A stretch of DNA of 58,511 nt from Chiloscyllium plagiosum (lineage: Eukaryota): contig NC_057719.1 of the NCBI RefSeq assembly GCF_004010195.1, forward strand, positions 24,747,854-24,806,364, written 5' to 3'. Shown here one piece after another: positions 4,921 to 43,116 of the stretch. The notes below the pieces were generated by a model. The model ran no database searches, was not told where the DNA came from, and saw only the letters and a list, made by a program, of their open reading frames with translations. The stretch's first letter is position 1. Each line of letters opens with the position of its first letter. The translations under genes and the position numbers were made by a program.

Positions 4921-5509
4921 CTGTAATGATAACAGGCAGTTACAAACGCTGGAATGTGTATACAAGCAAAATACTAAAATACTTAAATCTGTCTAAAGAA
5001 GAGCGTTTTTGCTCACTTTTCACAAGATTTAATACTGTATAAATAAATAAAGTCATAAAGAACTTTTCCAAATTATAATGAACATAATCAGATTAGTAAA
5101 ACTGCTTTCAAGCATCATTTTACAAGTTTTATGTTAGTGGGAACTTGGTGAGGCATCCAGCCAGAACTTAAATTCTGTGCTTCACAATGAAATTAAGTGG
5201 TGTCAGGTAAAGCAACATAACAAAGCTTTGTGTTTGGTATTGTAAAACTGTTTGGTAAAAGCACTGCAAAGTTGGCTCTGTTGTCGCAAAACACAGTTGA
5301 ATTGAGAGATGGAACCTTTTAAATATTTTACCAGTCAAACTTTTAAGTGACAAAATCTTGGCTGATTAACCAACTAATCTTTGTTGATGAATGTGACATC
5401 TGTTATTGAACATGGAAGGAAGTAGAATTTTTGAAAAGTGTAAGAGTAAAGTCATATAGTGGATTTACAGGGGTACAGATGACCTTCCCTCAGCTATTAT
5501 GTCCATTAG

Positions 5510-5714
5510 TTGAAAAGTGTGGTGCTGGAAAAGCACAGCAGGCCAGGCAGCATCTGAGGAGCAGGAGAATCGGCATTTTGGTCGTAAGTCCTTCATCAGG
5601 CTTATGCCCAAAACGTCGATTGTCCTGCTCCTCGGATGCTGCCTGGCCTGCTGCGCTTTTCCAGCACCACACTTTTCAACTCTGGTCTCCAGCATCTGCA
5701 GTCCTCACTTTCTC
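5510..5714 (+). mobile_element. Short fold-back element with degenerate hammerhead-like core (Penelope-like, non-autonomous), copy 1
   Basis: Inverted arms of about 85 bp; 3' end ...gcatctgcagtcctcactttctcc; 16-bp direct repeat ctattatgtccattag at 5494-5509 and 5715-5730. Confidence 0.85.
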
Positions 5715-6342
5715 CTATTATGTCCATTAGCACAGCACCAACCAGAAATCTGGTACTCACATTCTAAGAGATTAGTGGCCACTACAGGACTAAAAGGAGA
5801 CCAGAGGAAGAAGTAATAATGTCTCATAGACTTCAGGCAAATCCAGGGACTATCAATGGGCAAGGTTAGGAGACTCCCACAAGGGGAGAGCTGAGCTCAG
5901 GTTAGAGTGAGGGGGGTGCAATCATGTGATGCCCCCCCAATGGGCATAGGGAACACCCGCCCCCCCGAAACGCTTTCCCCCCTAACCAAAAATGAGCACC
6001 AGAAGCAAACCGAGGCACTTATTTAGTAGTGAACTGCCTACTTAAGTGTTTTAATAGCTGGAGGTCAGGCAACCTGTCCGATATCTTACCCTATCCCTGC
6101 AAGATGAAGGACAGGTTGGGATTGGCAGGAGGGTCCTGGCAAACTGCTTTCATTTATGTGCACCCTTGCTTTTAAATACATTAGCGGGCTGAAGGGCATA
6201 ACAAACATAAGAGAAGATTGAAGGGCTCATTTGGATTGGTATATCCATAATAAACACTTGCACTATGAATGGGTGCATATCCAACATAATGCTTTGTTTA
6301 GTTTTATAAATTACAAACGCACATGTCTGTAATCATTTATGA

Positions 6343-6484
6343 GGAGAAAGTGAGGACTGCAGATGCTGGAGATCAGAGCTTAAAAATGTGTTGCTGGAAG
6401 AAGGGCTTATGCCCGAAACATCGATTCTCCTGCTCCGTTGATGCTGCCTGGCCTGCTGCGCTTTTCCAGCAACACATTTTTAAG
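6343..6484 (-). mobile_element. Short fold-back element, copy 2 (opposite orientation, one arm truncated)
   Basis: Same family sequence as copy 1; TSD ctgtaatcatttatga (6327-6342) / ctataatcatttatga (6485-6500). Confidence 0.85.
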
Positions 6485-7594
6485 CTATAATCATTTATGA
6501 CATGTCAAAATAGGTCTTCAGAATTCAGATTAACTGCTTTTCTTGTATGTAGCCCAAATTAGTGGACCAACAAACTTTTTATCAGATATATATTTCCCAA
6601 TTATATCCTTAAGTTTACTAATTATAAAAAAGTGTGTATATCGGACCTTTGTTAAACTGGAGTGTAATGTGCCTGTACATTTGGATGTCATGTCTATGTA
6701 CTTGATAATTGCAATGCCAATGGATGAGTACCAACCTGAAGTCTCACAGAAACAGTGAAAGATCAATGCCACAGAATGGGATGATTTAACCTACTAAGTC
6801 TTGTGTAGCAAATGGGAAGATGGAAGCAAAGTTTTCAGATTTGATAAGGCCAGTGGACAGAAAAATAAAACAACAAAAGGGTCTTCCTGCTGCTGAGTAC
6901 AGCAAGTCCAATAAGCTCATTTCAATGGAGCTGTCAGCAATATACTGGAACCAATAACTTTGACATAGCAGTAGGCATATCAGAGAAACTGCTGGAGTGT
7001 TATTTCCCTAATGAATTTGACAGCTAATTAACTGCATAGACATAGAGTCATAGAGATGTACAGCATGGAAACAGACCCTTCCGTCCAACCCGTCCATGCC
7101 AACCAGATATCCCAACCCAATCTAGTCCCACCTGCCAGCACCCGGACCATATCCCTCCAAACCCTTCCTATTCATATACCCATCCAAATGCCTCTTAAAT
7201 GTTGCAATTGTACCAGGCCCCACCACATCCTCTGGCAGCTCATTCCAGACACGTACCACCCTCTGCGTGAAAAGGTTGCCCCTTAGGTCTCTTTTATATC
7301 TTTCCCCTCTCACCCCAAACCTATGCCCTCGAGTTCTGGACTCGCCGATCCCAGGGAAAAGACTTTGTCTATTTATCCTATCCATGCCGCTCATAATTTT
7401 GTAAACCTCTATAAGGTCATCCCTCAGCTTCCAACACTCCAGGGAAAACAGCCCCAGCCTGTTCAGCCTCTCCCTGTAGCTCAGATCCTCCAACCCTGGC
7501 AACATCATTGTAAATCTTTTCTGAACCCTTTCAAGTTTCACAACATCTTTCCGATAGGAAGGAGACCAGAATTGCAAACAATATTCCAACAGTG

Positions 7595-7725
7595 NNNNNN
7601 NNNNNNNNNNNNNNNNNNNNNNNNNNNNNNNNNNNNNNNNNNNNNNNNNNNNNNNNNNNNNNNNNNNNNNNNNNNNNNNNNNNNNNNNNNNNNNNNNNNN
7701 NNNNNNNNNNNNNNNNNNNNNNNNN
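7595..7725. other. Assembly gap
   Basis: Run of N inside a CR1. Confidence 1.
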
Positions 7726-8992
7726 ATGCAGCACCTCGCATTTATCTGAATTAAACTCCATCTGCCACTTCTCAGACCATTGGCCCATCTGGTCCAGATC
7801 CTGTTGTAATCTGAGGTAACCTTCTTCGCTGTCCACTACACCTCCAATTTTGGTGTCATCTGCAAACTTACTAACTTTACCTCTTATGCTCGCATCCAAA
7901 TCATTTATTTAAATGACACAAAGTAGAGGGCCCAGCACCGATCCTTGTTGCACTCCACTAGTCACAGGCCTCCAGTCTGAAAAACAACCCTCCACCACCA
8001 CCCTCTGTCTTCTACCTTTGAGCCAGTTCTGTATCCAAATGGCTAGTTCTCCCTGTATTCCATGAGATCTAACCTTGCTAATCAGTCTCCCATGGGAAAC
8101 CTTGTCGAACACCTTACTGAAGTGCATATAGATCACATCTACCGCTCTGCCCTCATCAATCTTCTTTGTTACGTCTTCAAAAAACTCAATCCAGTTTGTG
8201 AGACATGATTTCCCACGCACAAAGCCATGTTGACTATCCCTAATCAGTCCTTGCCTTTCCAAATACATGTACATCCTGTCCCTCAGGATTCCCTCCAACC
8301 CCTTGCCCACCACTGAGGTCATGCTCACCGGCCTATAGTTCCCTGGCTTGTCTTTACCGCCCTTCTTAAACAGTGGCACCACGTTTGCCAAACTCCAGTC
8401 TTCTGGCACCTCACCTGTGACTATCGATGATACAAATATCTCAGCAAGAGGCCCAGCAATCACTTCGATATCTTCCCACAGAGTTCTTGGGAACACCTGA
8501 GCAGGTCCTGGGGATTTCTCTACCTTTAATCGTTTCAAGAAATCCAGCACTTCCTCTTTGTAATCTGGACATTTTGCAAGATGTCACCATCTATTTCCCC
8601 ACAGTCTATAGCTTCCATATCCTTTTTCACAGTAAATACTGATGCAAAATATTCATTTAGTATCTCCCCCATTTTCTGTGGCTCCACACAAAAGCCACCT
8701 TGCTGATCTTTGTGGGGCCCTATTCTCTCCCTAGTTACCCTTTTGTCCTTAATATATTTGTAAAAGCCCTTTGGATTCTCCTTAATTCTATTTGCCGAAG
8801 CTATCTCATTTCTCCATTTTGCCCTCTTGATTTCCCTCTTAAGTATACTCCTACTTTCTTTATTTTCTTCTATGGATTCACTCGATCTATCCTGTCTATA
8901 CCTGACATATGCTTCCTTTTTCTGAACCAAACCCTCAATTTCTCTAGTCATCCAGCATTCCCTATACCTACCAGCCTTCCCTTTCACCCTGA

Positions 8993-9240
8993 AAATGTGT
9001 TGCTGGAAAAGCACAGCAGGTCAGGCAGCATCCAAGGAACAGGAGAATCGACGTTTCGGGCATAAGCCCTTCTTCAGGAATGAGGAAAGTGTGTCCAGCT
9101 GGACTCACTTTCCTTATTCCTGAAGAAGGGCTTATGCCCGAAACGTTGATTCTCCTGTTCCTTGGATGCTGCCTGACCTGCTGCGCTTTTCCAGCAACAC
9201 ATTTTCAGCTCTGATCTCCAGCATCTGCAGTCCTCACTTT
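8993..9240 (+). mobile_element. Short fold-back element, copy 3 (near-perfect 220-bp palindrome with hammerhead-like core on both strands), nested in CR1
   Basis: Palindrome centred on tccag|ctgga (9098/9099); 16-bp TSD ttccctttcaccctga at 8977-8992 and 9241-9256. Confidence 0.92.
9120..9147 (+). ncRNA. Putative minimal hammerhead ribozyme core (mirror copy on the minus strand at about 9050-9077)
   Basis: CTGAAGA-A-GGGC-TTAT-GCCC-GAAAC-GTT: CUGANGA and GAAA boxes with a 4-bp stem II. Stems I and III are very short. Confidence 0.55.
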
Positions 9241-9744
9241 TTCCCTTTCACCCTGACAGGAATATACTTTCTCTGGATTCTTGTTATCTCATTTCTGAAG
9301 GCTTCCCATTTTCCAGCCGTCCCTTTACCTGCGAACATCTGCCTCCAATCAGCTTTCAAAAGTTCTTGCCGAATACCATCAAAATTGGCCTTTCTCCAAT
9401 TTAGAACTTAAACTTTTAGATCTGGTCTATCCTTTTCCATCACTATTTTAAAACAAATAGAATTATGGTTGCAAAAGTTATTAAAATCAATCATAAAACG
9501 TAATGCTCTTCACATTACATTTGGGAAAAAAAGCTATTCTAGTACTCATACACTGTATATCTGGTACAATTCAAATAGATCAGCAAGACTCCAAATATAA
9601 TATCCACATGATGGCTAAAATTTATCATGGCTTTTTATCTGATTTTTAGTTTAAACTCTGCATTAATTTTGATTTCAGAAATCAACATGAATTTTCCTAT
9701 TTATTGCAGCAACTTACAGTGAAACAAATGACGTGTTTTTTATT

Positions 9745-10445: not shown

Positions 10446-13290
10446 TAGAACATAGAACATTACAGCGCAGTACAGGCCCTTCAGCCCTCGATGTTGCGCC
10501 AACCTGTCATACCAATCTGAAGCCCATCTAACCTACACTATTCAATGTACATCCACATGCTTGTCCAATGACGACTTAAATGTACTTAAAGTTGGCAAAT
10601 CTACTACCATTGCAGGCAAAGCATTCCATACCCTTACTACTGCCTGAGTAAAGAAACTACCTCTGACATCTGTCCTATATCTATGACCCCTCAACTTAAA
10701 GCTATGCCCCCTCGTGCTCGCCGTCACCATACTTGGAAAAAGGCTCTCCCTGTCCACCCTATCTAACCCTCTGATTATCTTATATGTTTCTATTAAGTCA
10801 CCTCGCAACCTTCTTCTCTCCAACGAAAACAGCCTCAAGTCCCTCAGCCTTTCCTCGTAAGACCTTCCCTCCATACCAGACAACATCCTAGTAAATCTCC
10901 TCTGCACCCTTTCCAAAGATTCCACATCCTTCTTATAATGTGGTGACCAGAACTGTACACAATACACCATGTGCGGCCGCAGCAGAGTTTTGACAGCTGT
11001 AGCATAACCTCATGGTTCCGGAACTCGATCCCTATATTAATAAAAGCTAAAACACTGTATGTGTTCTTAACAATCCTGTCAACCTGGGTGGCAACTTTCA
11101 AGGATCTGTGTACCTGGACACCAAGATCTCTCTGCTCATCTACACTACCAAGAATCTTACCATTAGCCCAGTACTTTGCATTCCGGTTACTCCGAACAAA
11201 GTGAATCACCTCACATTTGTCCACATTAAACTCCATTTGCCACCTCTCAGCCCAGCTCTGCAGCTTATCTATGTCTCTCTGTAACCTACAACATCCTTCG
11301 TCACTATCCACAACTCCACTGATCTTAGTGCCGCCTGCAAATTTACTAACCCACCCTTCTACGCCCTCATCCAGGCCATTTATAGAAATGACGAACAGCA
11401 GTGGACCCAACACCAACCCTTGCGGTACACCACTAGAAACTGGACTCCAGGATGAACATTTCTCGTCAACCACCACCCTCTGTCTTCTTTCAGCAAACCA
11501 ATTACTGATCCACTCTGCTATATCTCCTATAATCCCATTCCTCCGCATTTTGTACAATAGCCTACTATGGGTTAACCTTATTGAACGCCTTGCTGAAATC
11601 CATATACACCACATCAACCGGTTTATTCTCATCTCCCTGTTTGGTCACCTTCTCAAAGAATTCAATAAGGTTTGTGAGGCACGACCTACCCTTCACAAAA
11701 CCGTGCTGACCATCCCTAATCAAATTATTCTTTTCTAGATGATTATAAATCCTATCTCTTATAACCTTTTCCAACACTTTACCAACAACTGAAGTAAGGT
11801 TCACTGGTCTATATTTACCAGGGTTGTCTCTACTCCCTTTCTTGAACAGGGGAACCACATTTGCTATCCTCCAGTCTTCTGGCACTATTCCTGTAGACAA
11901 TGACAATTTAAAGATCAATTCCAAAAGGCTCGGCAATCTCCTCCCTGGCTTCCCAGAGGATCCTAGGATAAATCACATCTGGCCCAGGGGACTTATCTTT
12001 TTTCACACTCTGCAGGATTTCTAATACCTCTTCCTTGTGAACCTCAATCCCACCTAGTCTAGGAGCCTGTATCTCAGTATTCTCCTCGACAACATTGTTG
12101 TTTCTAGGGTGAATACTGTCGAAAAATATTCATTTAGTGCTTCCCCTATCTCCTCTGACTCCACACACAACTTCCCACGACTATCCTTGATTGGCCCTNN
12201 NNNNNNNNNNNNNNNNNNNNNNNNNNNNNNNNNNNNNNNNNNNNNNNNNNNNNNNNNNNNNNNNNNNNNNNNNNNNNNNNNNNNNNNNNNNNNNNNNNNN
12301 NNNNNNNNNNNNNNNNNNNNNNNNNNNNNNNNNNNNNNNNNNNNNNNNNNNNNNNNNNNNNNNNNNNNNNNNNNNNNNNNNNNNNNNNNNNNNNNNNNNN
12401 NNNNNNNNNNNNNNNNNNNNNNNNNNNNNNNNNNNNNNNNNNNNNNNNNNNNNNNNNNNNNNNNNNNNNNNNNNNNNNNNNNNNNNNNNNNNNNNNNNNN
12501 NNNNNNNNNNNNNNNNNNNNNNNNNNNNNNNNNNNNNNNNNNNNNNNNNNNNNNNNNNNNNNNNNNNNNNNNNNNNNNNNNNNNNNNNNNNNNNNNNNNN
12601 NNNNNNNNNNNNNNNNNNNNNNNNNNNNNNNNNNNNNNNNNNNNNNNNNNNNNNNNNACTCAGGAGCTTTTCCTTGAATAAGCTCCACATTTCTAATGTG
12701 CCCATCCCCTGCAGTTTCCTTCCCCATCCTATGCTTCCTAAATCTTGCCTAATCGCATCATAATTGCCTTTCTCCCAGCTGTAACTCTTGCCCAGTGGTA
12801 TACACCTATCCCTTTCTATCACTAAGGTAAACATAACAGAATTGTGATTGCTATCACCAAAGTGCTCACCTACTTCCAAATCTAATACCTGGCCGGGCTC
12901 ATTCCCCAGTACTAAATCTAATGTGTCTTAGCCCCTTGTTGGCCTGTTTACATACTGTTCAGGAAGCCCTCCTGCACATACTGGAGAAAAACTGACCCAT
13001 CTATAGTACTCGTACTATAGTGTTCCCAGTCAATATTTGGAAAGTTGAAGTCCCCCATGAAACTATCCTGTCTCTCTTACTCCTATCGAGAATCATCTTT
13101 GCTATCCTTTCCTCTACATCTCTGGAACTTTCGGAGGCCTATAGAAAACTCCCAACAGAGTGACCTCTCCTTTCCTTTTTCTACCCTCAGCCCATACTAC
13201 CTCAGTTGACGAGTCCCCAAACATCCTTTCTGCAACTGTAATAGTGTCCTTGACTAGCAATGCTACACCTCCCCCTCTTTTACCATCTTC
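10446..13290 (-). mobile_element. Young CR1 LINE, second family ((agaacat)n tail), ORF2 from endonuclease to 3' UTR; contains a gap
   Basis: ORFs with VGEHFGDSNHNSV, VPEDWRIANVVPLFKKG, QHGFVKGRSCLTNL, SGVPQGLVLGPLLF, YCVQFWSPHY. Possible TSD atctagtt (10438-10445) / atctaatt (13291-13298). Confidence 0.95.
12199..12657. other. Assembly gap
   Basis: Run of N inside a CR1. Confidence 1.
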
Positions 13291-13299
13291 ATCTAATTG

Positions 13300-14729: not shown

Positions 14730-15540
14730 GCTACTTGCAGTGCTGTTCACCACACTAGAGTAAAGATGTGATTGTGCTAGAGATGTGACAGAGAAGATTT
14801 ATACACATATTACCTCTACTGGAGAATTTCAGTTATAATGAAAGGTTATGTAGGCTAGAGATACTTTCTTTGGAACAGAGGAAGATGTAGGGAGATATAA
14901 CTGAAGTGCATAAAATTATCGAGGATCTTGCTTGGGTGAGAGTGCTTTAATCCCCTTGGTTCAGGAGTGAGAGATTTAGGGTAAGAGACAAAAGATTCAG
15001 AGGGAATTCAAGTATAAATTGTTTCATCCAGACAGTAGTGGGAAATGATAGCCTCATGGCATTATTTCTAGACTGTCAACCCATTTGAATCAGACGGTTG
15101 AATTTGAATTCAACAAATATCCAGAGTTAGGAGTCTGATGAAGACTATGAAACCACTGTCAATTGTCGGAAAAACCATCTGGTTCACTAACGTCCTTTGG
15201 GAAGGAAACTGTCATCCTTACCTGGTCTAACCTACATGTGATTCGAGACCCATAGTAATGTGGGCAATTAGGGATGGGCAAATAAATACTGGCTTGGCCA
15301 GTGATGCCCAGATGTTCTGAATTAATATTTTAAAAATCCTGCAACTCACTTCTTAAAGGGTAGCTTAGACAGAAACCCTGATAAACTTTTATAAAGTAAG
15401 GGGATACGCACCTGAGAAGTACCGTAACCTATAAAGATATGGAACAAGAACTGAGAAGCGATATTAGACTGGGTGGCTACTTGTCAGCCAGTGGAGCAGT
15501 AATGGGTTGAATGATCGTCTTCTGTGCAGTAAAATGTTTA
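14730..15540 (+). mobile_element. Old CR1 3' fragment interrupted by a SINE (about 15040-15330) bearing the gggcaattagggatgggca..taaatactggc tail
   Basis: Degenerate RVTEKI.., FSLEQR..GD, RFRGN..FIQTVVG, resuming WNSL-like at about 15338. Confidence 0.6.
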
Positions 15541-15619
15541 AGATGTTTAATTCTCTGAAACAGAATATCTGATAAAGGCCTGAAGTGTTACGTCCTTCCC
15601 CTCAGTGAGTAGAGAGTTT

Positions 15620-15638
15620 CAGTGCTCCCTGGTGGCCA
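15620..15638 (-). promoter_or_regulatory. CTCF-like motif
   Basis: Minus strand tggccaccagggagcactg, close to the CTCF consensus, in non-repeat sequence. Confidence 0.45.
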
Positions 15639-15823
15639 TTCTTTGTAGTAGGGTAATTTAAAACAGACAATTTAAATTTTCTTCAGAGTCCAGATCCTGT
15701 AGCTGACCTGAACACTTTGTTCACAATTTAGTGACAAAGTGTGATTGCTCTGATCAGGGGCAGTGCATGAAGGCTAGAAAAGTAAGAACTCTCTTCCCTC
15801 TCAGTCCTTTTTACCCCCAGAGC

Positions 15824-16028
15824 TGAAAAATGTGTTGCTGGAAAAGCGCAGCAGGTCAGGCAGCATCAAAGGAGCAGGAGAGTTGACGTTTCGGGCATAA
15901 GCCCTTCTTCAGGAAGGGCTTCTGCCCGAAACGTCGATTCTCCTGCTCCTTGGATGCTGCCTGACCTGCTGCGCTTTTCCAGCAACACATTTTTCAGCTC
16001 TGATCTCCAGAGCTGCAGTCCTCACTTC
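15824..16028 (+). mobile_element. Short fold-back element, copy 4 (intact hammerhead-like core on the minus strand, 15885-15912)
   Basis: Inverted arms; 19-bp direct repeat tcctttttacccccagagc at 15805-15823 and 16029-16047, partly overlapping the element termini. Confidence 0.9.
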
Positions 16029-16701
16029 TCCTTTTTACCCCCAGAGCCAGGTTTGGACCAATCAGAAACGTTGGCCAGAGGAAGGGAATCAGCTTCCCAG
16101 CTGAGCCCAATCTGCAGTCCTTTCCAGAGGCTGTTGTTCAAATTTCAGTGGAAATATGTCAGAAGGGTTGAAGGTTTTTAATGACCAAATAAATTGAAAA
16201 GAAACATCAAAAAATTGATCCTAATGTGATGCTGTGATACCCAGAAATCGTTTAGTTTGCTTGTTTATCAGTGCAAGTGCTCAAAGAACACATTTAATTT
16301 TAACAAGATTTTCAAGCATTTAAACTTCTATTATGTTCGACTGAAGCTCTTTTAAAAAGTCAACTAACAAAGAATGGGAGACCAATTCATGAAAGCAAAT
16401 GAGCAACTTAAATGTAATTATTTTCAATTCCTACAATGCCATTGTTGTTATTCAAAACGAGCCAGCTTTTGTAAAAGTATTCTTCCACAATTCAACTAAC
16501 AGTCTATTGAAAGATATCATCAAACCCTTTGCAACAAACTACATTATGAATGTTGTTTTTTCTCTGGTTCTCATGAAACTCCACCTTGCTCAGCAAAATG
16601 TTCTAACATGACATAATGACAATGGTATGAATCAGCAGTCTACATACGTTTGCAATAGCAAGGTTGGACCATATCTATATTGTAATGTTGAACATACTAA
16701 C

Positions 16702-19105: not shown

Positions 19106-19109
19106 TTTT

Positions 19110-21540
19110 GATCCCTACCATGAAAGGTTGGCCATTTGAGAATTGAGAGGAGAAGCTGATTTGAAGTTGATTTTTTAGGAGTTCTGCCTGAATGTCTATG
19201 AGGTTGGCTTCAAGGAGGCGGCGAGCATTTGTCCTCCCATTAAAGTCAGAGAATGTGGCAGAGGCATTGCTGATGTAATTTCTCTAGAGAAATTAGGTGT
19301 CATAGAACATAGAAGAATACAGCGCAGTACAGGCCCTTTGGCCCTCGATGTTGCGCCGATCCAAGCCCACCTAACCTATACTAACCCACTATCCTCCATA
19401 TACCTATCCAATGCCCGCTTAAATGCCCATAAAGAGGGAGAGTCCACCACTGCTACTGGCAGGGCATTCCATGAACTTACGACTCGCTGAGTGAAGAACC
19501 TACCCCTAACTTCAGTCCTATATCTACCCCCCCTTAATTTAAAGCTATGTCCCCTTGTAATACCCGACTCCATACGCGGGAAAAGGTTCACACTGTCAAC
19601 CCTATCTAACCCCCTAATCATCTTGTACACCTCAATCAAGTCACCCCTAAACCTTCTTTTCTCTAATGAAAACAGCCCCAAGTGTCTCAATCTTTCCTCA
19701 TACGATCTTCCTACCATACCAGGCAACATCCTGGTAAACCTCCTCTGCACCCGTTCCAGTGCCTCCACATCCTTCCTATAGTATGGCGACCAAAACTGCA
19801 CACAATATTCCAGATGCTGCCGTACCAGAGTCTTATACAACTGCATCATGACCTCAGGACTCCGGAACTCAATTCCTCTTCCAATAAAAGCCAGTACGCC
19901 ATATGCCTTCCTCACCGCACTATTTACCTGGGTGGCAACTTTCAGAGATCTGTGTACATGGACACCAAGATCCCTCTGCTCATCCACACTACCAAGTATC
20001 CGACCATTAGCCCAGTACCCCATCTTTTTGTTATTCCTCCCACTTAGCTACATTGAATTCCATTTGCCACCTTTCTGCCCAGCTCTGCAGCTTCTCTATA
20101 TCCTGCTGTAACCTGCCACATCCTTCCTCACTGTCAACAACTCCTCCGACTTTCGTATCATCTGCAAACTTGCTCACCCAACCTTCTAACCCCTCTTCCA
20201 GGTCATTTATAAAATGTCACTTATACATAGTCCAGATCTCACTGCAGTACAAGACTATGGTGACAACAACTGTTCTGTGTGCTACAACCTTGTTACATTG
20301 TGGAGGATTTTGTAATCACTCACTGCTGTAATTGTTAGAAGGCTGAACTGGCACTGCTGCTCCAGCTTTGGATCTCCCCATCAATAGTGGGGGCTCCTTG
20401 ACAGAAATGGCTGCTGAGGTATAGGATTAATATACTGCAGAGTGTCTCCTTCAACAGATCTTGGGAGATGTGATAGTTATCTGACCGGTGGGGTTGATTC
20501 ATCAGTTTTGTTTTGGCAACTTTCAAGACGAGACTATGTATCTCGCATGTGGAAGTGAGGAAAAGAGTGGTTTGCAAACCTGATGCAGAGTGGGAGTCAC
20601 ACTACATCGATCTGCAAGATATAGATACACATTTACAGTGATCAGTGCATTTTGGCACAAAGGGAACTGAAGCTAAAGAGTGTTCCATCAAGATGATTTA
20701 ATACTGCCAGCAGGAGGCAGCTGATCTTTGATGAAGTGAATAGCAAGTGTCAGGTGGATTGCAAATAGTCTGGAGGCTATCACACAGCCTCGTTTGACTT
20801 CAGTTTGAACTCTGAAGTTGTTTCAGATATTCAACTTAAAAAGTCACAGTCATATCATCAAGAAGCAACTGCAGGATTGTGATGGAGTTTCAAATATTCA
20901 AATCTTTGGAGTAGAATCCACACAGCCTCATGATACACTGAGTCAATTACTCTGGGTCAGGTCAATGAATGCAATGAAGAGTTCTGGTACTGCTCTCACT
21001 TTAAAAAAAAAATTGATGTTAGATCATGTTAGAAGTTCTTCTGGGAGACTGAAGTCACACCATGTCTCAGGAAGCATCTCCTCAGCCATAGCAAATAGAG
21101 AATTCAGGAGTGTGTGTGTCAGGACTTTAGTCTGCTGTGGTCAAGAAGGAAATACCTCAATAGATTCCAAAGCAATGCTTGATATACCTTCTTGATGATC
21201 GTCATAATTATCATATTCCTAATGTCAATGGGGAAAAAGGGGAGTAGGCGAATTGTTTTTCCTCTCAAATCTGTAGGACAAACGTATGAAGTTTTGATGC
21301 AAGTAAAGTCTACCATCCTTGAAGACCTCAGCTGGAATACCACTGGGGTAAAATTGTTGCTTTTTTTCATATGTTTGATTGTTCTGGAGGATAGCCCAGA
21401 GTGTATCAGCCACCTCTGTGAATTCACAGTGAGAAGTTGTTCATAAAGTTTCTTTTCAGCATCGACAAATGATATTGTCACTGTCAAGAGGAGAAACACT
21501 GTCCTGTGAACAAGTGGCATTTTGTCCATTCTTTTGGTCT
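19110..21540 (-). mobile_element. Old degraded RTE-clade LINE interrupted by the CR1 at 19303-20214
   Basis: Frameshifted fragments: GIPAEVFKDG, AEEMLPET, EVKRGCVIASRLFAI, LKVAKTKLMNQP, IDGEIQSWSSSASSAF, LEKLHQQCL. These are RTE/BovB-like motifs. Confidence 0.7.
19303..20214 (-). mobile_element. Young 5'-truncated CR1 with intact 215-aa ORF2 C-terminus
   Basis: ORF 19376-20023 (EQRDLGV, LEYCVQFWSP, LFSLEKRR, TRGHSFKL, WNALP) and FADDTK upstream; tgtca TSD at 19298-19302 and 20215-20219. Confidence 0.95.
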
Positions 21541-24673: not shown

Positions 24674-25591
24674 TGTTATGGAACAGATCAACCCCCCCCA
24701 AAATATACTAAGAAGATAGTCTAGACCCTAATTTTCTTACTTTAAAAGTAAGTGTAAGGTATTGCCTTCCAGATACAATTTGATTGGTCAAACTTCTCAA
24801 GTTTAAGCAAAACACACTTAATTTTTACACTACAGTTAAAATACAGACAAAATAAAAAGAAAAGAATTGGCTTAATTTTAGCTCTTTAGAAATGCTTAAC
24901 AAAATAATATATGTATATATTAATTACTACTAATTAACCGGGTGGCACAGTTGTTAGCACTGCTGCCTCACAGCACCAGAGACACGGGTTCAATTCCTGC
25001 CTCAGGCGACTGACTGTGTGGAGTTTGCACATTCTCCCTGTGTCTGCGTGGGTTTCCTCCCACAGTCCAAAGATGTGCAGGTCAGGTGAATTGGCCATGC
25101 TAAATTGCCCGTACTGTTAGGTGAAAGAGTAAATGTAGGGGTATGGGTGGGTTGCGGGTCGGTGTGGACTCGCTGGGCTGAAGGGCCTGTTTCCACACTG
25201 TAAGTAATCTAATCTAAACTGTTCCAGTATAGTAATCTCCCATCAACACACCTTTCGCAAAGGCAAATTCAATAGATTGTCTCATATGCAATTCTGGCAG
25301 CAGGAAGAGAACCACAGTTTTTAGCTGTAACAGAGAAAGGAATAAGCATTCCCACATCCAGTTTCAAGACCTCAGGAACTGGAGAAAGCTAAGACTCAAA
25401 ACTTGAGTACTGTGGGAGCTTGATCCCATTGATTGAGGCTGCTTCTATTGTTCCAACATTTCAAAAAAGCCCCAAGGCCTCACAAGCTGTTTACTCTATT
25501 GGCTTTGAGCGGACTGCTTGTAACCTTTGTCTCAAACTTTCTTCAATAAAAAAAGACAAAATATACCTCTTAAAGCAATAGTATCACCACA
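24674..25591. mobile_element. Probable solo LTR (about 640 bp without the nested SINE)
   Basis: Termini TGTTA...CCACA (TG..CA), no coding capacity, LTR-like length; no clean TSD seen. Confidence 0.45.
24940..25217 (+). mobile_element. tRNA-derived V-SINE (HE1-like) nested in the probable LTR
   Basis: A box ggtggcacagttgttagc, B box gggttcaattcc, V-domain gtgtggagtttgcacattctcc..gtctgcgtgggtttcc, CR1-like tail and (taatc)n. Confidence 0.92.
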
Positions 25592-25736: not shown

Positions 25737-27100
25737 TAAGACTATAAGACCTTAAGACAAAGGAGTGGAAGTAAGGCCATTCGGCCCATCGAGTGCTGAT
25801 GGGCTGATGGGCATTTCAACTCCACTTACCCGCATTCTCCCCGTAGCCCTTAATTCCTTGTGACATCAAGAATGTATCAATCTCTGCCTTGAAGACATTT
25901 AGCATCCCAGCCTCCACTGCACTCTGTGGCAATGAATTCCACAGGCCCACCATTCTCTGGCTGAAGAAATGTCTCCGCATTTCTGTTCTGAATTTACCCC
26001 CTCTAATTCTAAGGCTGTGTCCACAGGTCCTAGTCTCCTCGCCTAACGGAAACAATTTCCTAGCGTCCACCCTCTCCAAGCCATGTATTATCTTGTAAGG
26101 TTCTATTAGATCTCCCTTAATCTTCTAAACTCCAATGAATACAATCCCAGGATCCTCAGCCGTTGCTAATATGTTAGACCTACCATTCCAGGGATCATCC
26201 GTGTGAATCTCCGCTGGACACGCTCCAGTGCCAGTATGTCCTTCCTGAGGTGTGGGGACCAAAACTGGACACAGTACTCCAAATGGGGCCTAACCATAGC
26301 TTTATAAAGTCTCAGTAGCACAACGGTGCTTTTATATTCCAACCCTCTTGAGATAAATGACAACATTGCATTCGCTTTCTTAATCACAGACTCAACCTGC
26401 ATGTTTACCTTTAGAGAATCCTCAACTAGCACTCCCAGATCCCTTTTTACTTTGGCTTTACGAATTTTCTCACCGTTTAGAAAGTAGTCCATGCTTGTAT
26501 TCTTTTTTCCAAAGTGCAAGACCTCGCATTTGCTCACATTGAATTCCATCAGCCATTTCCTGGACCACTCTTCCAAACTGTCTAGATCCTTCTGCAGCCT
26601 CCCCACTTCCTCAGTACTACCTGCCTGTCCACCTAATTTTGTATCATCGGCAAACTTCGCTAGAATGCCCCCAGTCCCTTCATCCAGATCATTAATATAT
26701 AATGTGAACAGCTGCGGCCCCAACACTGAACCCTGTGGGACACCGCTTGTCACTGACTGCCATTCTGAAAAAGAACCTTTTATCCCAACTCTCTGCCTTC
26801 TGTCAGACGGCCAATCCTCAATCCATATGAGTAGCTCACCTCGAACACCATGGGCCCTCACCTTGCTCAGCAGCCTCCCGTGTGGCACCTTATCAAAGGC
26901 CTTTTGGAAGTCTAGATAGACCACATCCACTGGGTTTCCCTGGTATAACCTACTTGTCACCTCTTCAAAGAATTCCAACAGGTTTGTCAGGCACGACCTC
27001 CCCTTACTAACTCCATTTGACTTGTTCTAATCCGACCCTGGTCTTCCAAGAATTTAGAAACCTCATCCTTAATGGTGGATTCTAGAATTTTACCAACAAT
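25737..27100 (-). mobile_element. Young CR1 (third family), RT domain to 3' UTR
   Basis: 270-aa ORF with YLDFQKAFDKVPH, SGVPQGSVLGPQLF, KFADDTKLGG, RPHLEYCVQFWSP. Confidence 0.95.
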
Positions 27101-31520: not shown

Positions 31521-31559
31521 TGCCACCATAGTGGGACCTGAGGGGCTTTTTTTTTATTT

Positions 31560-33756: not shown

Positions 33757-34079
33757 GGGCGGCACGGTGGCACAGTGGTTAGCACTGTTGCCTCACAGCG
33801 CCAGAGACCCGGGTTCAATTCCAGCCTCAGGCGACTGACTGTGTGGAGTTTGCACGTTTCCTGTGTCTGCGTGGGTTTCCTCCGGGTGCTCCGGTTTCCT
33901 CCCACAATCCAAAAATGTGCAGGTTAGGTGAATTGGCCATGCTAAATTGCCTGTCGTGTTAGTTAAGGGGTAAATGTAGGGGTATGGGTAGTTTGCCCTT
34001 CGGCGGGTCGGTGTGGACTTGTTGGGCCGAAGGGCCTGTTTCCATACTGTAATGTAATGTAATGTAATCTAATCTAATG
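33757..34079 (+). mobile_element. Full-length tRNA-derived V-SINE (HE1-like)
   Basis: gggcggcacggtggcacagtggttagcac...gggttcaattcc...gtgggtttcctccgggtgctccggtttcctccca...gggccgaagggcctgtttcc, tail (taatg/taatc)n. Confidence 0.95.
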
Positions 34080-34249
34080 TAGGAAAAAGGGACTGCTCAG
34101 ATGGTTCAAGTTCCACCTGCCCCAGTGAAATGTTATAACATGTCCAAACAGGTTGGTTACAAACTATAGAAAGGGGTTGCCAGGAGTCTGCGATGGGGAT
34201 AGTGGGATGAGACAGAGATGCGTAAGACAGATCCTATGAATAAAGGAGA

Positions 34250-34815: not shown

Positions 34816-35643
34816 TGTCATGTTTCCTACTTCACCATCTGGTACGGATCCTTTTAAACAGCTGGGATCAGGGATTCCTCATTTTTAAAAACTTAACAAC
34901 TCTCCCATCTTAAATCCATCTGAGGGAGGGTTGGGGGTGATTTAAAAAACCCATTCCAGTAGCCTGGCAATCAAATATTAGAAAACTATTTCATTTTTGC
35001 AACTATGATATTATTAGGCTGTCTGCTGCCCTTCCTCTCAAATGGGAAATAAGAATTGCTGCTGTTGATCCCTTCACTTGATTCACATACTTGCACAGCA
35101 CAAAATTAAAACTATATTATGCTATCACCAGAGTAACAATCACCAGTGTAAACATACGTTAAACAACAATTTTTGAAATTATACCCTTATTTACTGATAA
35201 CTAGTGATGTTTTTTAATAGCTGCTTTGGAACAAGCATGTAACCAATTCAGTTTCATGATTACGAAACCTCAGAGCAACATAAATATGCGAAAAATGTAA
35301 GGGTGGCATTTTTGTGCAAGATAACAGAATTGTAATTAACATTGCCGCACATATCAAGCCACATATAATATTTCTCACAAGATCACCGGCCCTTTGAGCT
35401 TTTGTTCAGGTTAGTACTTTTATGTTAATTTTACCTTTACATTACGGTAAATCTAATTATCGGTTTACAATTGTGAAAAATTTGGAATCAGTCAACTTTC
35501 AACTGCTGTGCCTTGTCACAAGTTACCTAATCAAAATTTAAAAATAAATTAACCAGGAAACACATGGAATTAACTCATGTTGAAAAAACTTGACTGCAAT
35601 ATATCATTATTCAAATTTGCATATGAGCATCTCAAATTCTTAC

Positions 35644-36858
35644 CAGTGTCTCTTTGATCTCCAATTCTGTCTAGAATGTTGAAGGAAATGTCAAGGTATT
35701 CCCTCTGAATAGCACTAACAGCTATCTTCCTTTGTTTTTTCTGACGTGGAACAATCTGGATTTTGAATTCTGTTTCTTCACCACTATCATCTTTTTGATC
35801 AGTATCTTTATCAGTAGACACCTCTGTGTTTGGTTTTTCACTGTCTTCGATTTCCGAAGGCAGCTTGAGAAATACTGTTTTAACTATGGGACTTGGAAAT
35901 GGGCTTTCAGATTTAATATCATCTCTATGCAAATCATCCGTATCATCTTGTGATATTTCAACCACAGCAGATGATTTCCTGAGGTTTTCTCGTTTCTGTT
36001 TAAGAGTTAGTGGACTTTCACAGCCAGAACACTTAGAATTTTTTTGTGGTGTTAGATTTTCAAAGTCTTTTTCATCTACAAGACCTATTGATAAAATGTT
36101 CTCAGTATCTAGCAAAGAAGTCATACCAAAATCCAGACATTTTGACTCTTTGGAGCAATCTTCAACATTAACTTTTACAACTGGTGTAACATTTAAGCTA
36201 TGTGATGCAGTATTCTGAGAGACCACATTAGTTTTTCCATTTGATTTATTATTAGGGGTATTCTGCATTTCATATTCCTCATCACTCTCTACAATTCTGA
36301 GAGGGGGAAGAGGCACAAAGACCAAAGAATCGCTATCAGAACTTGATAGAATTGATTGCTTCTCAGGAGCAGATGACGAATCAGAAGATAAATCAATCAA
36401 ATCACTTTCTTCTTTATGAAAGCAAAGATGTTTCTCAGGAGATTCAAGTTTTGCCTCAAATGTTTCCGTGCAGCTGAGTCTAACTTCTGGTATTAATGGT
36501 CGTTTCCCTTCTTGAGAGTTTACTGCAGCGGAAATATTTTCCTGATCTTCTCCAATTTCTGCACTGACAGACAAGTCCTGCTCTGGTCTTCCATACATGC
36601 TTGCCAAGTGAGGATAGCAGGAAGGGAAGCTTGCTTGTCGTAATGATTCATACCTATCCAGACATGACTTTCTGCGATGTTCATCTAAGGAGTACAGGAC
36701 AGAATCCGCGTTTCCTATATCAAGTGACTGCTGCTTAATTGCATATAATTTTTTCTTCTGAGCAACTCCCTCTTGCAATTGTGGAGATGTACCACACCGC
36801 ATTATATTGTCTGGCAAAAGGCTGGAATCTCTGTACTCTGACAGCTCTATCTCTGAGC
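35644..36858 (-). CDS. UNC79: UNC79 large exon (1215 bp, phase 1-1), acidic Ser-rich low-complexity region
   Basis: Lies within the 456-aa ORF. Contains SEIELSEYR, KQQSLDIGNADS, IPEVRL, DLIDLSSDS, SDSDSLVFVPLPPLRIVESDEE and EFKIQIVPRQKKQRKIAVSAIQREYLDISFNILD. Acceptor ttccctttag, donor gtaaga. Confidence 0.95.
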
Positions 36859-37738
36859 CTAAAGGGAAAATCATGAAGGTTACAAAAAGAATCAATGCAG
36901 ACAATTTCAACAAAATCCAATTAAATTCACAATTATACATCAGCTAAAATGAAAAATTTCATTAATTAGTGTATGCCAAAATATACAAATCACATAAACA
37001 AATAAGCTGAATAAAAGTTGATTGAATCTAAATTTTAAAAATAACAGACTTACAGGCATATTTAGAATTGAGTTTCTGGTATTTATAAATTTGCATACAG
37101 CGTAACTTCAGGGAACTAACAACGAGGTATGTTTTGATTTATTACATAGCTGCGGCAACAATATCAAGAATTCCAATTGCAAATTTTTAAGGCCGTAAGT
37201 TTCAAACAGGATATTCTAGCAAAGGAGAAATAGAAATTGCTTGAGATGCCAAGGTTTTGGGAACTATGGGCTTGGGCTGTAGGCTGGACAACTTGATGTA
37301 GGCCACCGTAGTTTGAATGACATTAACCTCTCTATTTACCTTTGGAAACCAGTAATCATTTGGAATTGGATAGGCCCATTGTACAGTTGTTGCTTTTCTG
37401 TGTATAAGCACATGGAAGCTTTGTTCCTGCTGGTTGTGAACATTTATTTGTAGGATCTGGACAACATGAACAAGGATGGGACAATCTTTAAATTCAAGCA
37501 ATTTAAATTGCAACGTTTTCTGGCTGTTCATGCTTTGGCTATAATTTTTAACTTGTCTTTTTAATTATCTGGGCAGGTGCAGGAAATGGGAGCGTGTCAA
37601 GATCAAAAGTATGCAGCAATTTCCTAGCAGGTACACACAAGATGGGAGTGAAAGTACAGGCTTCCTGCACTGTTGACATGAAATGCTAAATTACCTCTAA
37701 AAGCCTTACATTTCTTCTATAGAAGTATAAAAACTTAC

Positions 37739-37888
37739 TCTTCTGTGCATTCATCTCTACTGGTTGATATTTTACTGATTTACTTCCCCCTATCCTCTTC
37801 AGTCTTGCAAAGAATGTCTGTGGTTCCTTGTTGCAAGCTCCAACCGGTGTATCATGTACATCTGATTCATCAAACACACTATCTTCCT
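37739..37888 (-). CDS. UNC79: UNC79 exon (150 bp, phase 1-1)
   Basis: EEDSVFDESDVHDTPVGACNKEPQTFFARLKRIGGSKSVKYQPVEMNAQK. Acceptor ccttttgccag, donor gtaagt. Confidence 0.95.
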
Positions 37889-38727: not shown

Positions 38728-38890
38728 CTTTTTCTTTCTCACTGTATTTGCTAATGTTACTATTATCACTGTAAAGGGGTCCAGCAGTGGGATGGGGCTT
38801 ACAGCTATGGTATTGTGCATTAAGTGTATTGATCGTAATATAGATCAGATGCAATACAATTTTGCTGATATCGGAATCCCTGTAAGGATA
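38728..38890 (-). CDS. UNC79: UNC79 exon (163 bp, phase 0-1)
   Basis: YPYRDSDISKIVLHLIYITINTLNAQYHSCKPHPTAGPLYSDNSNISKYSEKEK. Acceptor ttctttctag, donor gtaaga. Confidence 0.95.
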
Positions 38891-39169
38891 CTAGAAAGAA
38901 AATAAAGAATGTTAGTGCAATATATATCTGGAAGTGATAAAAATGTATTTTAAAACAAACATATCAAATGTTTCTAATACTTTCTTCATTGTAGAGGCTA
39001 CTTGCTTAACTTGCAAGAAGGTCTAACCTCCACATAATTTACATTTGTATAAATTGCTGCCAACACAAATGATTGAGAAACCGTACTCCACAGTTGCCTT
39101 TTCCCACAAAGGTCAATTAGCTTAATGTCTGACAATGGTAAAATGTTATGATCTATTACACAAGATGTA

Positions 39170-40270
39170 ATAGCAGAGCATTTAAAGAAGTATCATAAAA
39201 TCAAGCCCAGTCTGCATGGCTTCATGAAGGGGGAATCATGTGATAAATGTAGTACTGTTCTTTGAGGAGATAACAAGTAGAATAGATAAAGGTAACCAGT
39301 AAATGTAACATATTTAGATTTCTAAAAGGCATTTGACAAGGTGCCACAAAATACTACTTAATAAGATAAAAGCCCATGCTATTGGGAGTAGCGCTTTAGC
39401 ACAGATAGGGAATTGGCTAACTAATAGGAAATAGGGATTTGTATTAAAAGGGACATTTTCAGGATGGTAAACCATAACTAATGGAGTGTAATAGGGATCT
39501 CTGCTGGAGCCACAATTATTTACAATGTGTATCAATGACTTAGGGTGAATGTACTATCCAAGTTTGCAGATGACAACAAAAAAGCTGAGAAGGCATGTCA
39601 TGGAGATGACACAGAGTCTATAGATTAGTGAGCGGGCAGAACTTAGCAGATGAAATAGAATGTGGTAAAAGTGAGGTTGGGCACTTTTGCAGGAAGAACA
39701 GAAGAGTCGAATACTATTTAAATGGGGAAAGAATGCAGAAAACTGGAACTCAAAAGGATTTGGGGGTCCTAGTTAATGAATCACAAAATCTAGTACCAAG
39801 TTCAGCAGGTAATAGGGAAGGCCCTTATTTCAAAGAGAATGGAGTATAAAGATTGCTAGAACTATACATGGCATTAGTCAGACCACACATGGAATATTGT
39901 GAACAGTCTGCTTATCTAACCAAACTTACATTTTGACTTTGGATGCAGTCTACAGTAGGTTCATTAGGCTGATTCTGGGTATGGAGGACTTTCTAATAAG
40001 GTTGAGTAGGTTGGACTTGTAATCATTGGAGATGAGAAAAATGAGAGGAGACCTTATTGAAATATAGAAGACTCCTAGAGAACTTGACAGGGTAAATATG
40101 GAGAGGTTGTTTCTTATGGTAGGAGCATCTAGGACAAGAGGGCACAATTTCAGTGTTAAGGGATTGCTAATTTAAAAAGAGATGAGGATGATTTATTTTT
40201 CTTTCAGACGGTAGTGAATCTATGGAGTTATTTTCCAGATAGGGTTGTAAAGGCTGGATTGTTAAGTATA
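39170..40270 (+). mobile_element. Old CR1 RT to C-terminus fragment
   Basis: HGFMKGES, YLDF*KAFDKVP, KFADDNK, QKDLGVLV, LVRPHMEYC; many stops. Confidence 0.85.
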
Positions 40271-40296
40271 TTATTGACATGGAGGGGTGGCAAAGT

Positions 40297-40380
40297 CAAA
40301 AGTCACAAGACAACAGGTTATAGTCCAACAGATTTATTTGAAATCATATGCTTTTGGACGCTGCTCCTGCATCAGGTGAA
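40297..40380 (-). mobile_element. Fragment of a second Penelope-like terminal-repeat family with decayed hammerhead-like core
   Basis: Minus strand tcacCTGATGcaggagcagcgtccAAAAGcatatg...ttggactataacctg; family resemblance is from memory. Confidence 0.4.
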
Positions 40381-42065
40381 GAATCTGAACTGCCGTCTGG
40401 GCAATTAGAGATCGGCAATAAATGCTGGCCTAATAAATAATATTCACATCCTATGAACTTTTATTGTCAAAACAAATTTGTTAAGATAACAAATTGGGCA
40501 AAGAGCTCATGTATTGTTATATGAGTTAGAAGATCATTAACTTGCTGAATGTTTTCTGCAAATTCATATATATTAAATATCAATGGATGTCATTTGATTT
40601 TGCCATTTCCTCATAGCAATCAGAGGTTATCTGGGCATTCCAAATTGTGAATACTGTAAATTATGCAAGTTGCAATTAAGTATGCAGATATTTGTGTAAA
40701 TAATGTGGGTAAATTCTAAAATGACTGATAATTTATTTCTTCAGTTATTGCTTTAAGAAACCTAGAATTTTGAAATTTGATGGATGCTTTGCAGATGAAA
40801 TCTTTCCAGGAGAAGAATTAACTTCCATAATGTGGAATACTCAAAGGCGGAAAAGCAAGCATCAAAGCCCAAGTCCTGTGATTGTAATGATAATAAAACT
40901 GTCAAGGTGTGCCATTATTACTTTATGAAATGAAAAGCAACCTCAAGTGTCTGTCTGTGTGCAGTTAAACATAGAAATCCTGATGCAGCTGTTGATGATT
41001 CCTTACTCCTTCAAGGGATATACTTTTGAAGTCCTCACAAATGGAAGTCACCTTGAAATCACTGCAGTGATGTACATTATTTCAGCTATAAAAACCATGA
41101 AAAATTACAATTTGTTGAATGAGGAGTAGCTGTATTGTAAGTGGCATACCAAGTCATAAGAAGCGCTGAACAACTCCTCTGGTCCTGAAGGACTAAACTT
41201 AAAATTATGTCCTATCATATCTTTCAACTCCATGACAAAAATACTGTAGAACTTTATAATATTTATTTTTAATTGTAAAAGTGGAAATAACATGAAGTTT
41301 AATCATTTTTGTATGTCCATGTCTTTATTTTCTTTTCAGTAAAAGTACAAAATATGAATGATAAAACTTGTTAGTTACTTCCTGGTCGGCTTTTAGAGTG
41401 AACTCTGCCTTGTGATTGGCTGCTTAATCTGCTTGATATCATCACTGTTGCTGGATGTCAAGGGCCAGGTATTCTTACCTCCAGACACGTTAGAAAGAAA
41501 GTCTGTAGGATTTAAATAGGTTTAATGTTTCGAAGAAGTTTTTGAATAGCCATTTGATTATTTTGGCAATTTCCTGAGTATCTCAAAGACTTCCTAATGT
41601 TATTATATGCTTAATGAATTCTACCCATAACAATACTGGGTGATGTAGCTATGGGGTTAAGGAGGGGATATGGAGGGGTACATGACAGCGAGGGGTTCGG
41701 TGCCCAACTTGACAAAACTAGGCCAATATTTTGAATGGAGGCATACCTAATAATGAGTCCACCTTAGTATTTGTTGGCCTTTGTTCCTTTCTCGGGCTTG
41801 TTTCCAGAGGCAGCAGCCTGGCAGTAGGCCATCTTGCTATGAAATTATTATATACAGACACTGCTAGACAGAATATAGAATCACACATTGCAAACTGGCT
41901 CAACTTATGTTTCTTGCCTTACAGAATGAAAATCCAGGTCCACAGATCCCCTCTAGTTTGTGCCAGAATGAAATTAATGGTGGGAAGGATGAAATCTACA
42001 AAATACAGCTTGTCAGTTCTTCAGTCGCAGATGTCTTCAAGGTCAGCAGAAAGCACAATCACTTT

Positions 42066-42268
42066 CAAGAGTGTGGTGCTGGAAAAACACAGCAGGTTAG
42101 GCAGCATCCCAGGAGCAGAAGAATCAATGTTTCAGGCATAAGCCCTTCATCAGGAAGATGAAGTACTTATGCCCGAAACGTTGATTCTCCTGCTCCTCGG
42201 ATGCTGTGGTTTTCCAGCACCACACTCTTGACTCTGATCTCCAGCATTTGCAGTCCTCACTTTCCCCT
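42066..42268 (+). mobile_element. Short fold-back element, copy 5 (older)
   Basis: Inverted arms; decayed TSD agcacaatcacttt (42052-42065) / agcaccattacttt (42269-42282). Confidence 0.85.
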
Positions 42269-43116
42269 AGCACCATTACTTTGCCACAGATGGTAAAATC
42301 CAGCAAAGGCCTGGTGATGCCAGGCGTTGACTGTAAAACCAACATATCTTAGAAATGAAAGCAGTCTCAGGTCTGGTAAGGATATGCTTCACAAAATTTA
42401 AAAGTTCAAAGGCAGTGAGTTTTAGGTGATGCAGTTAAATAGATCTTCAAAGATGTGACTGCACATGGAAAAGGTGGAAGACAACTCAAGTTCTGGATTT
42501 TGTAATGAAACATCAATTATAGAAGCAAGGAATGGGTTGAAATTGGCTTAACAAGACATTATAAATCAGAGATTGACTATTATAATTCTGTCACCCCCAA
42601 TTATAGGAAGGATGTTAAAGCCACAGGTGCAATGCATCAAATATTCAGTACAACAATGAAGTTTGAAAACTACACTTTTTTGAAAAAAACCAAGCAGTTT
42701 TATTGAAAAAATAGAGCCTTCAAAATTTGATAGGCTTTAAGTTAAAGGATTGCTACTACCTAATTGGAGCAAATCAGTATGAAAGCACAGACAACAAAAA
42801 AAAGGAGGATGTTAGGAAAATAATTTTAAATGGGGAATATGATAATATGGATTGCTTTACCAGCAATAGCCTTTGAGGCAGTTGAAATGGAGATATGTAT
42901 GGAAAATGTAAATATAAAACAGTGAAAGGAAACAGCAGAAAATGATTGGGTGGAGCATGGGGTCTTCTTGAGCAATGTAATTCAATGGTGTAAGGTTTTT
43001 TTCAGGAAAGCTGCACTATTCTGATTAAAAAAGTGATCACCAATATCTTTGAAAAAGGAAAATGCCACATCTATCAAGGTAAACTTTCATGTTACATTAG
43101 TATCACAATATGTAAT

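Follow-up and report, generated by a model that had tools for sequence, protein, structure and literature searches.

Penelope-like elements (PLEs) are retrotransposons whose insertions carry an adjacent, inverted and 5'-truncated copy, a tail of 30-40 bp on one end and a target-site duplication (TSD) (PMC8557442; PMC3846280). Metazoan PLEs harbor minimal hammerhead ribozymes (min-HHRs), the consensus of which comprises a U-rich leader, CUGANGAH, a G...C stem II, GAAAN, a palindromic C/G and UH; single motifs, left by truncated PLEs, predominate, and opposite-strand pairs spaced by 100-700 bp have been noted as well (PMC4209133). The purified protein of an anole PLE, a predicted dimer, nicks and extends both target strands and initiates at two sites bounding the tail, and this element inserts from uncleaved RNA, its hammerhead mutants inserting normally (PMC11167929). 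The pathway of PLE insertion is described as still unresolved (PMC11167929; PMC8557442). Non-long-terminal-repeat (non-LTR) retrozymes, which also contain hammerheads, are defined by head-to-tail tandem units (PMC7229834; bioRxiv 10.64898/2026.07.22.740005). PLEs are reported to have expanded in the introns of the whale shark (bioRxiv 10.1101/443036). Here, we analyzed a stretch of 58,511 nucleotides of Chiloscyllium plagiosum (contig NC_057719.1, positions 24,747,854 to 24,806,364; hereafter, the window), in which five short fold-back inserts with a hammerhead-like motif lie within a homolog of the UNC79 gene. We propose that these inserts are, very likely, terminal fragments (pseudo-LTR and tail) of an endonuclease-bearing PLE.

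Each insert (142-248 nt) consists of two head-to-head copies of one module of about 100-140 nt. The ten aligned arms share a body that begins with a hammerhead-like 5' part and closes with a short T-run, and in all five copies one arm continues for 32-38 nt as a tail while the other stops. The tail measures 26-37 nt if the bases shared with the target are assigned to the inverted arm. The inverted arms all have nearly the same outer end, which varies by a few bases among the five copies and lies 32-38 nt short of the tail end; there, 2, 2, 4, 6 and 1 nt are shared with the target in copies 1 to 5, respectively. As the defining open reading frame (ORF) could not be tied to the module, membership of the PLEs rests on four non-coding features, all of which were found: the inverted 5'-truncated copy, the one-sided tail, the TSD and the minimal hammerhead.

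A TSD of 13-19 nt flanks every copy. It is exact over 16 nt for copy 1 (5494-5509 and 5715-5730) and copy 3 (8977-8992 and 9241-9256), and over 19 nt for copy 4 (15805-15823 and 16029-16047), where the last 6 nt match the element too. It can be read as 13 exact nt or as 16 nt with one mismatch for copy 2 (6327-6342 and 6485-6500), and as 14 nt with two mismatches for copy 5 (42052-42065 and 42269-42282). At random places away from the copies, an exact repeat of at least 13 nt was found in 5 of 2000 trials and one of at least 15 nt in none of 2000, and an anchored 14-mer with at most two mismatches occurred in 2 of 5000. An earlier note on this DNA, prepared from the sequence without database searches, had reported the five inserts, their long direct target repeats, a fixed 3' end and an inverted copy of variable length at the other end. 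On re-reading, the positions and the target repeats were confirmed, as was the inverted copy; copy 2 proved to lie on the minus strand, and the part that varies is the center of the fold-back, not the clustered outer end.

The individual arms are preserved to different extents. In copy 1, the inverted arm (5510-5600, minus strand) retains the 5' box, with the GAAA box and stem II mutated, and the tail-bearing arm (5599-5714, plus strand; tail about 5680-5714, 35 nt) begins 9 nt inside the hammerhead core, GG (5599-5600) being common to both. The tail-bearing arm of copy 2 (6343-6399, minus strand; tail about 6343-6378, 36 nt) is very short and devoid of the hammerhead; the inverted arm (6397-6484, plus strand) lacks the first two core bases and has a mutated helix III site, and the two arms have 3 nt in common (6397-6399). 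Copy 3 carries a complete minimal hammerhead in both its inverted arm (8993-9098, minus strand; motif from 9077 down to 9050, with a GUC site) and its tail-bearing arm (9099-9240, plus strand; motif 9120-9147, with a GUU site; tail 9205-9240, 36 nt). In copy 4, the core is complete in the inverted arm (15824-15915, minus strand; core from 15912 down to 15885), the first stem-I pair being broken, and the tail-bearing arm (15913-16028, plus strand; tail about 15997-16028, 32 nt) is without the CUGA box; GAA (15913-15915) is common to both. Copy 5 has a blunt join between an inverted arm (42066-42156, minus strand) with both core boxes (from 42153 downwards) and a mutated GUH site, and a tail-bearing arm (42157-42268, plus strand; tail about 42231-42268, 38 nt) that has lost 12 nt internally. 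Divergence between the paired arms is 2.6% in copy 3, 5.3% in copy 4, 10.5% in copy 1 and 10.9% in copy 5. Two sequence types can be told apart, one comprising copies 1 and 5 and the other copies 2-4, the diagnostic bases being identical in both arms of a copy.

The fold-back point is different in all five copies. Counted from the first core base, the 5' ends of the inverted and tail-bearing arms lie at -1/+9 in copy 1, +2/+69 in copy 2, -3/+5 in copy 4 and -3/+2 in copy 5; in copy 3, the two arms start some 21 nt before that base (about -21/-21). The inverted arm extends further 5' in all four asymmetric copies, and seven of the ten arm 5' ends lie between -3 and +9, with two near -21 and one at +69. 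At the center, the arms overlap by 2, 3, 2, 3 and 0 nt in copies 1 to 5, the overlap of copy 3 being judged against the upstream loose end of a public sequencing run; the probability that at least four of five centers share at least 2 nt by chance is about 0.004. The cleavage site is crossed by nine of the ten arms, which extend upstream of it, and no arm begins at it, which argues that the copied RNA was uncleaved. In public contigs aligned to copy 4 we counted 393 different joints, and the 15 listed all link positions inside the element, i.e., they belong to other family copies with other centers. From the differing centers, the shared central bases and the arms that run through the cleavage site, we propose that each insertion likely produced its palindrome afresh, with uncleaved RNA as the template. 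Taken as a whole, the reading of the inserts as PLE terminal fragments with palindromes assembled one insertion at a time appears to us probable.

The motif in the module is ordered as a U-rich leader, CUGA(A/U)GA, an additional A, a helix II of 4 bp capped by a 4-nt loop, GAAAC and GUH. Helix I is made of 2 bp, a U-U mismatch and 1 bp, the first pair being broken in copy 4. Compared by eye with the published consensus line, this arrangement fits the min-HHR of metazoan PLEs (PMC4209133). The core is complete in three of the ten arms, namely both arms of copy 3 and the inverted, minus-strand arm of copy 4. A hammerhead descriptor gave three matches in the window and none in each of 200 simulated windows; since the three matches belong to one family, they count as one event and not three. 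The public contigs vary at loop II positions and CpG sites, among the 40 of 92 rows listed. A comparison with Rfam at E<=5 returned seven matches, none of them to a hammerhead family; the best, to RRE, scored 43.8 bits against a gathering score of 104 and reflects only the hairpin, from which the weak mir-family matches likewise arise. The minimal hammerhead that the earlier note had described is supported, and its caveat that a monomer is unable to fold helix III is well taken; the intact core ascribed to copies 3 and 4 holds for both arms of copy 3 but for one arm of copy 4 only, with its first stem-I pair broken, and the Rfam comparison it had suggested turned out negative. Elsewhere in the window, an isolated and looser hammerhead pattern (15135-15153, plus strand; a 5' box, 7 nt and GAAAC, without a GUH site) is probably a chance occurrence or a relic of another family.

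Whichever strand of a copy is transcribed, the antisense arm precedes the sense arm, and a strand holds at most one sense hammerhead. The pairing probability of stem II, which is 0.98-1.00 in a single arm, falls to 0.00 in copies 3-5 and 0.07 in copy 2 when the whole copy is folded, copy 3 folding as one hairpin of -206 kcal/mol. With the antisense arm coming first and helix II unpaired in the fold-back, the copies are predicted to be dead as ribozymes, their hammerhead being buried in the hairpin. When two arms were co-folded, the ACGU dimer was not the lowest-energy structure; thermodynamic folding ignores hammerhead cores, and this result was not counted.

As to the mechanism of insertion, we lean slightly towards a two-ended priming step, which would proceed as follows. 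The GIY-YIG nuclease of the element would nick both target strands 13-19 nt apart. One target 3' end would prime reverse transcription at the tail end of the RNA, and the other would use a second start, about 32-38 nt further into the RNA. Synthesis of both complementary DNAs (cDNAs) would break off early, in most cases at the hammerhead's front edge, the 3' ends of the cDNAs would be joined through 0-3 complementary bases, and fill-in would then yield the fold-back and the target duplication. The hammerhead would be inherited from the pseudo-LTR of the parent, uncut in the RNA being copied. Such a scheme would explain why the tail is one-sided, the outer end clustered and the center variable, as well as the shared bases and the TSD. 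We did not find a two-ended priming model for PLEs in the open-licence literature.

Four other explanations can be weighed against this proposal. The template could be a dedicated short non-autonomous RNA, one arm of about 130-150 nt with its 5' end shortly before the hammerhead, which a PLE protein would copy in trans with the fold-back formed at insertion; the clustering of seven of the ten arm 5' ends around the first core base speaks for it, as do the absence of any longer 5' extension within the window and the behavior of the loose ends of public records upstream of the core, which agree over about 10 nt and then dissolve (agreement 0.43-0.49 in sets of 1305, 901, 1289 and 479 records). 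However, copy 3 and a loose-end consensus from RNA continue upstream for at least another 21-30 nt, indicating that a longer parent exists, and the same pile-up of ends would result from a transcript start in the pseudo-LTR or from stalling of the reverse transcriptase (RT) at a folded or protein-bound hammerhead, so that we regard a dedicated short RNA as unlikely. The inverted arm could instead arise by self-priming of one nascent strand, through a hairpin snap-back and possibly on an antisense template, as proposed in PMC3846280, and both the diagnostic sites shared by the arms of a copy and the short palindromic or shared bases at the centers are in keeping with this. The inverted arm, which reaches further 5' in the four asymmetric copies, speaks against a simple snap-back of the tail-primed cDNA; the outer end of that arm is clustered and has 1-6 nt in common with the target, as expected of a primed start site, and the anole protein extends both strands in vitro (PMC11167929). 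Self-priming therefore strikes us as rather improbable.

The earlier note had favored an ORF-less, retrozyme-like palindromic unit that is cleaved by its ribozyme through dimers, which would have to be combined with later erosion of the centers. This idea draws on the very high copy number and stereotyped size of the inserts, the complete core in both arms of copy 3 and the close relationship of the arms within a copy. It is difficult to reconcile with the absence of tandem units, with the antisense arm coming first in a hairpin that spans the whole copy and leaves stem II at 0.00-0.07 in copies 2-5, with the lack of any arm starting at the cleavage site, and with the five different centers, which argue against a single palindromic master amplified as a unit; we consider it very improbable. 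A palindromic master with later central deletions, like self-priming, retains a small probability. As for a cut-and-paste miniature inverted-repeat transposable element (MITE) containing a hammerhead-like motif by chance in its long inverted repeats, the long inverted arms, the lack of an ORF and the high copy number are what one would expect of it, but one end bears an unpaired tail of 32-38 nt, the TSD varies from 13 to 19 nt instead of being short and fixed, bases are shared at the junctions and the motif fits the PLE min-HHR consensus, which leaves a MITE with next to no credibility. The asymmetric ends, the variable TSD and the shared junction bases thus support retrotransposition rather than cut-and-paste transposition, and the insertion anatomy, together with the min-HHR fit, supports a Penelope-type origin, both of which the earlier note had put forward. 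A bolder scenario, about which we are doubtful, is that a shark PLE shed an RNA module of about 130 nt that starts at the front edge of the hammerhead and has come to occupy something like a per cent of the genome; the hammerhead would then act not as a nuclease but as the start, binding or RT-stop signal of this RNA, and each copy would record double-ended priming by a dimeric RT-endonuclease.

Several observations weigh against the interpretation of the inserts as PLE terminal fragments assembled by two-ended priming. Long palindromes can lose their centers through microhomology after insertion, which mimics variable joints. The non-CpG distance is 4.4% within copies (4 pairs) and 8.8% between copies (32 pairs), a within-copy likeness equally expected from a palindromic master, from a self-primed hairpin or from later conversion, and two-ended priming alone leaves arms of the same type unexplained, unless one RNA or a dominant master supplied both. 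Compensatory changes were seen in none of the seven hammerhead pairs over nine arms (the tail-bearing arm of copy 2, which is without this region, being excluded), a comparison of little power. No RT or GIY-YIG gene of the kind that the earlier note had postulated as a partner is tied to the module in the window, RVT_1 being found in two of ten frames tested and GIY-YIG in none, and no PLE protein was found to carry the module translation, which turned up in only one, mis-annotated, shark protein. The TSD of 13-19 nt is longer than the 8-10 bp of rotifer PLEs, and Arkhipova et al. read head-to-head junctions as self-priming on an antisense template (PMC3846280).

The search for a parent gene extended beyond the window. 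A profile of the five arm translations, compared with 1.84 billion protein representatives, gave a single hit to a hypothetical protein of Chiloscyllium punctatum (GCC20401.1, 96 aa), whose last 24 residues are the repeat read in frame; this protein is not a PLE ORF, and its end is either a gene-model artefact or an exonised copy. The hit places the family in bamboo sharks. In copy 1, an ATG in loop II opens a frame that runs to the tail end and whose register relative to the cleavage site is that of the anole PLE ORF (26 bp; PMC11167929). We take this match as a weak lead, being at best a one-in-three coincidence, and no PLE protein starting at a loop II ATG was found. A weak search of two copy 1 frames against longer proteins gave two and one candidates, none at E<=0.01. 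Pattern scans for relatives found 0 and 0 in viral contigs; six metagenome and four genome-contig loci were rejected as GC-rich bacterial chance matches with no similarity beyond the typed motifs. We did not find this shark family in the open literature; it may well be named in Repbase or Dfam, which were outside the search.

The family is abundant. The five copies occupy 1,003 nt, or 1.7% of the called bases of the window, at a density of 5 copies per 58.5 kb, and no sixth copy was found in the window, which otherwise yielded only weak matches to an older relative. In three public DNA runs, 92,598, 68,871 and 87,489 contigs matched positions 15600-16250 at 85% likeness, nearly all on the element; such contig depth is not copy number, and one run may be the source sample. 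The high copy number claimed by the earlier note is borne out by these counts, but its claim of recent activity is borne out only in part, as the arms are 2.6-10.9% apart and copy 4 is apparently common to a second organism. In a DNA run of the latter, one contig, with 5 differences in 246, leads from the left flank 22 nt into copy 4, and another, with 9 differences and 2 gaps in 238, begins in the final 16 nt of the copy 4 tail and continues through the right flank, which indicates, without proving it, that this insertion is common to the second organism and fixed, both contigs falling short of the 31-letter rule. No empty-site joint of copy 4 was seen among the 15 of 393 joints listed, an observation that is not decisive. 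The copies are not all young. In a poly(A) single-cell RNA run, 2,800 of 12,955,460 records matched the element (54 at 99% or more), on both strands and with none on the flanks. There was no pile-up of starts or ends in this run; a poly(A) library cannot show ribozyme ends, so cleavage is neither supported nor opposed by this finding.

All five copies lie between detected exons within the span of the UNC79 homolog (3416-48392, minus strand), whose exons at 3416-3556, within 35570-36943 and within 47997-48392 were matched to solved UNC79 chains, the intervening exons being mapped in part. The same span holds many decayed RT fragments of the long interspersed nuclear element (LINE) type, at 7122-9020, 10542-12927, 19376-20047, 25816-27026 and 43206-43832, which without exception share the minus-strand orientation of UNC79; two that were tested match Pfam RVT_1, and copy 3 sits inside one of them (8535-9020 frame). 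We presume these fragments to be CR1/L2-like. They share no tail sequence with the inserts, and a LINE partner with a shared 3' end was accordingly rejected, as was a head derived from transfer RNA (tRNA), ARAGORN calling 0 tRNA genes. Another short repeat family is represented by three copies (24941-25203, 33766-34081 and 46003-46146), two of which adjoin 5-nt tandem tails; by resemblance we take it to be akin to short interspersed nuclear elements, although ARAGORN called no tRNA in it. An older and more diverged fold-back of the same design as the inserts (53045-53212), with arms 75% alike, is 77-80% like the studied family over 40 nt and has a CUGAAGA-like box at its center, with no convincing TSD; a single-arm relative of it (57486-57530) is 78% alike over 49 nt. 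Immediately left of the TSDs of copies 1 and 4, the sequences at 5484-5493 and 15795-15804 are pyrimidine-rich and both have CTCAG as their last bases; in copies 3 and 4, the TSD begins with a pyrimidine run resembling the tail end. Target preference or homology-assisted priming may lie behind these features. Positions 263-439 hold a near-perfect tandem duplication with a unit of 89 nt (98% match).

Together, these data most likely depict an ordinary product of Penelope-like retrotransposition, of a kind already described in print: dead tail-end copies of a PLE and not a new self-cutting mobile RNA. For annotation, the family is an abundant shark repeat that mimics a MITE, a microRNA hairpin or a coding sequence, and that is best read as PLE debris. 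Its many small fold-back copies bounded by TSDs offer a cheap statistical test of two-ended priming against self-priming, and, if the short-module scenario were true, tens of thousands of junctions would settle the origin of PLE inverted repeats and tails. The family would carry greater weight only if a discrete short template RNA or an active ribozyme were shown.

Among described systems, the inserts resemble most the insertion units of PLEs (Penelope/Poseidon, Neptune and Nematis; PMC8557442, PMC3846280, PMC11167929), with which they have in common the inverted truncated copy, the one-sided tail, the TSD, the junction microhomology and copies that span an uncleaved hammerhead; they differ in being the terminal module only, devoid of an ORF, and in their very high density. 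Their motif resembles the min-HHRs of metazoan PLEs (Cervera and de la Pena 2014; PMC4209133) in its CUGANGA followed by one nucleotide, the G10.1-C11.1 pair, the missing loop III, the palindromic C/G, the UH site, the U-rich leader and the occurrence of both single motifs and opposite-strand pairs; its helix II of 4 bp and short helix I place it among the weaker published examples, and no shark entry turned up in the part of the supplement searched. The inserts have in common with non-LTR retrozymes (PMC7229834; bioRxiv 10.64898/2026.07.22.740005) the lack of an ORF, a type I hammerhead, a derivation from PLE pseudo-LTRs and long TSDs. By contrast, retrozymes form tandem arrays with mostly canonical hammerheads and are processed to circles, whereas the units studied here are paired head to head and their hammerhead is minimal and, by prediction, sequestered. 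None of the nine tandem arrays in the window involves the element, all five copies being single head-to-head pairs, and the motif departs from the canonical type I hammerhead (a helix I of about 6 bp and a helix III), its helix I being 2 bp plus 1 and loop III being absent. Thus, the retrozyme-like family proposed in the earlier note is not supported, the units being non-tandem and the non-canonical hammerhead predicted to be locked in a hairpin. In the twin priming of LINE-1, both target ends also prime, giving an inversion with microhomology at the join; twin priming, however, inverts a different, upstream part of the RNA, whereas the inserts studied here copy the same terminal part twice.

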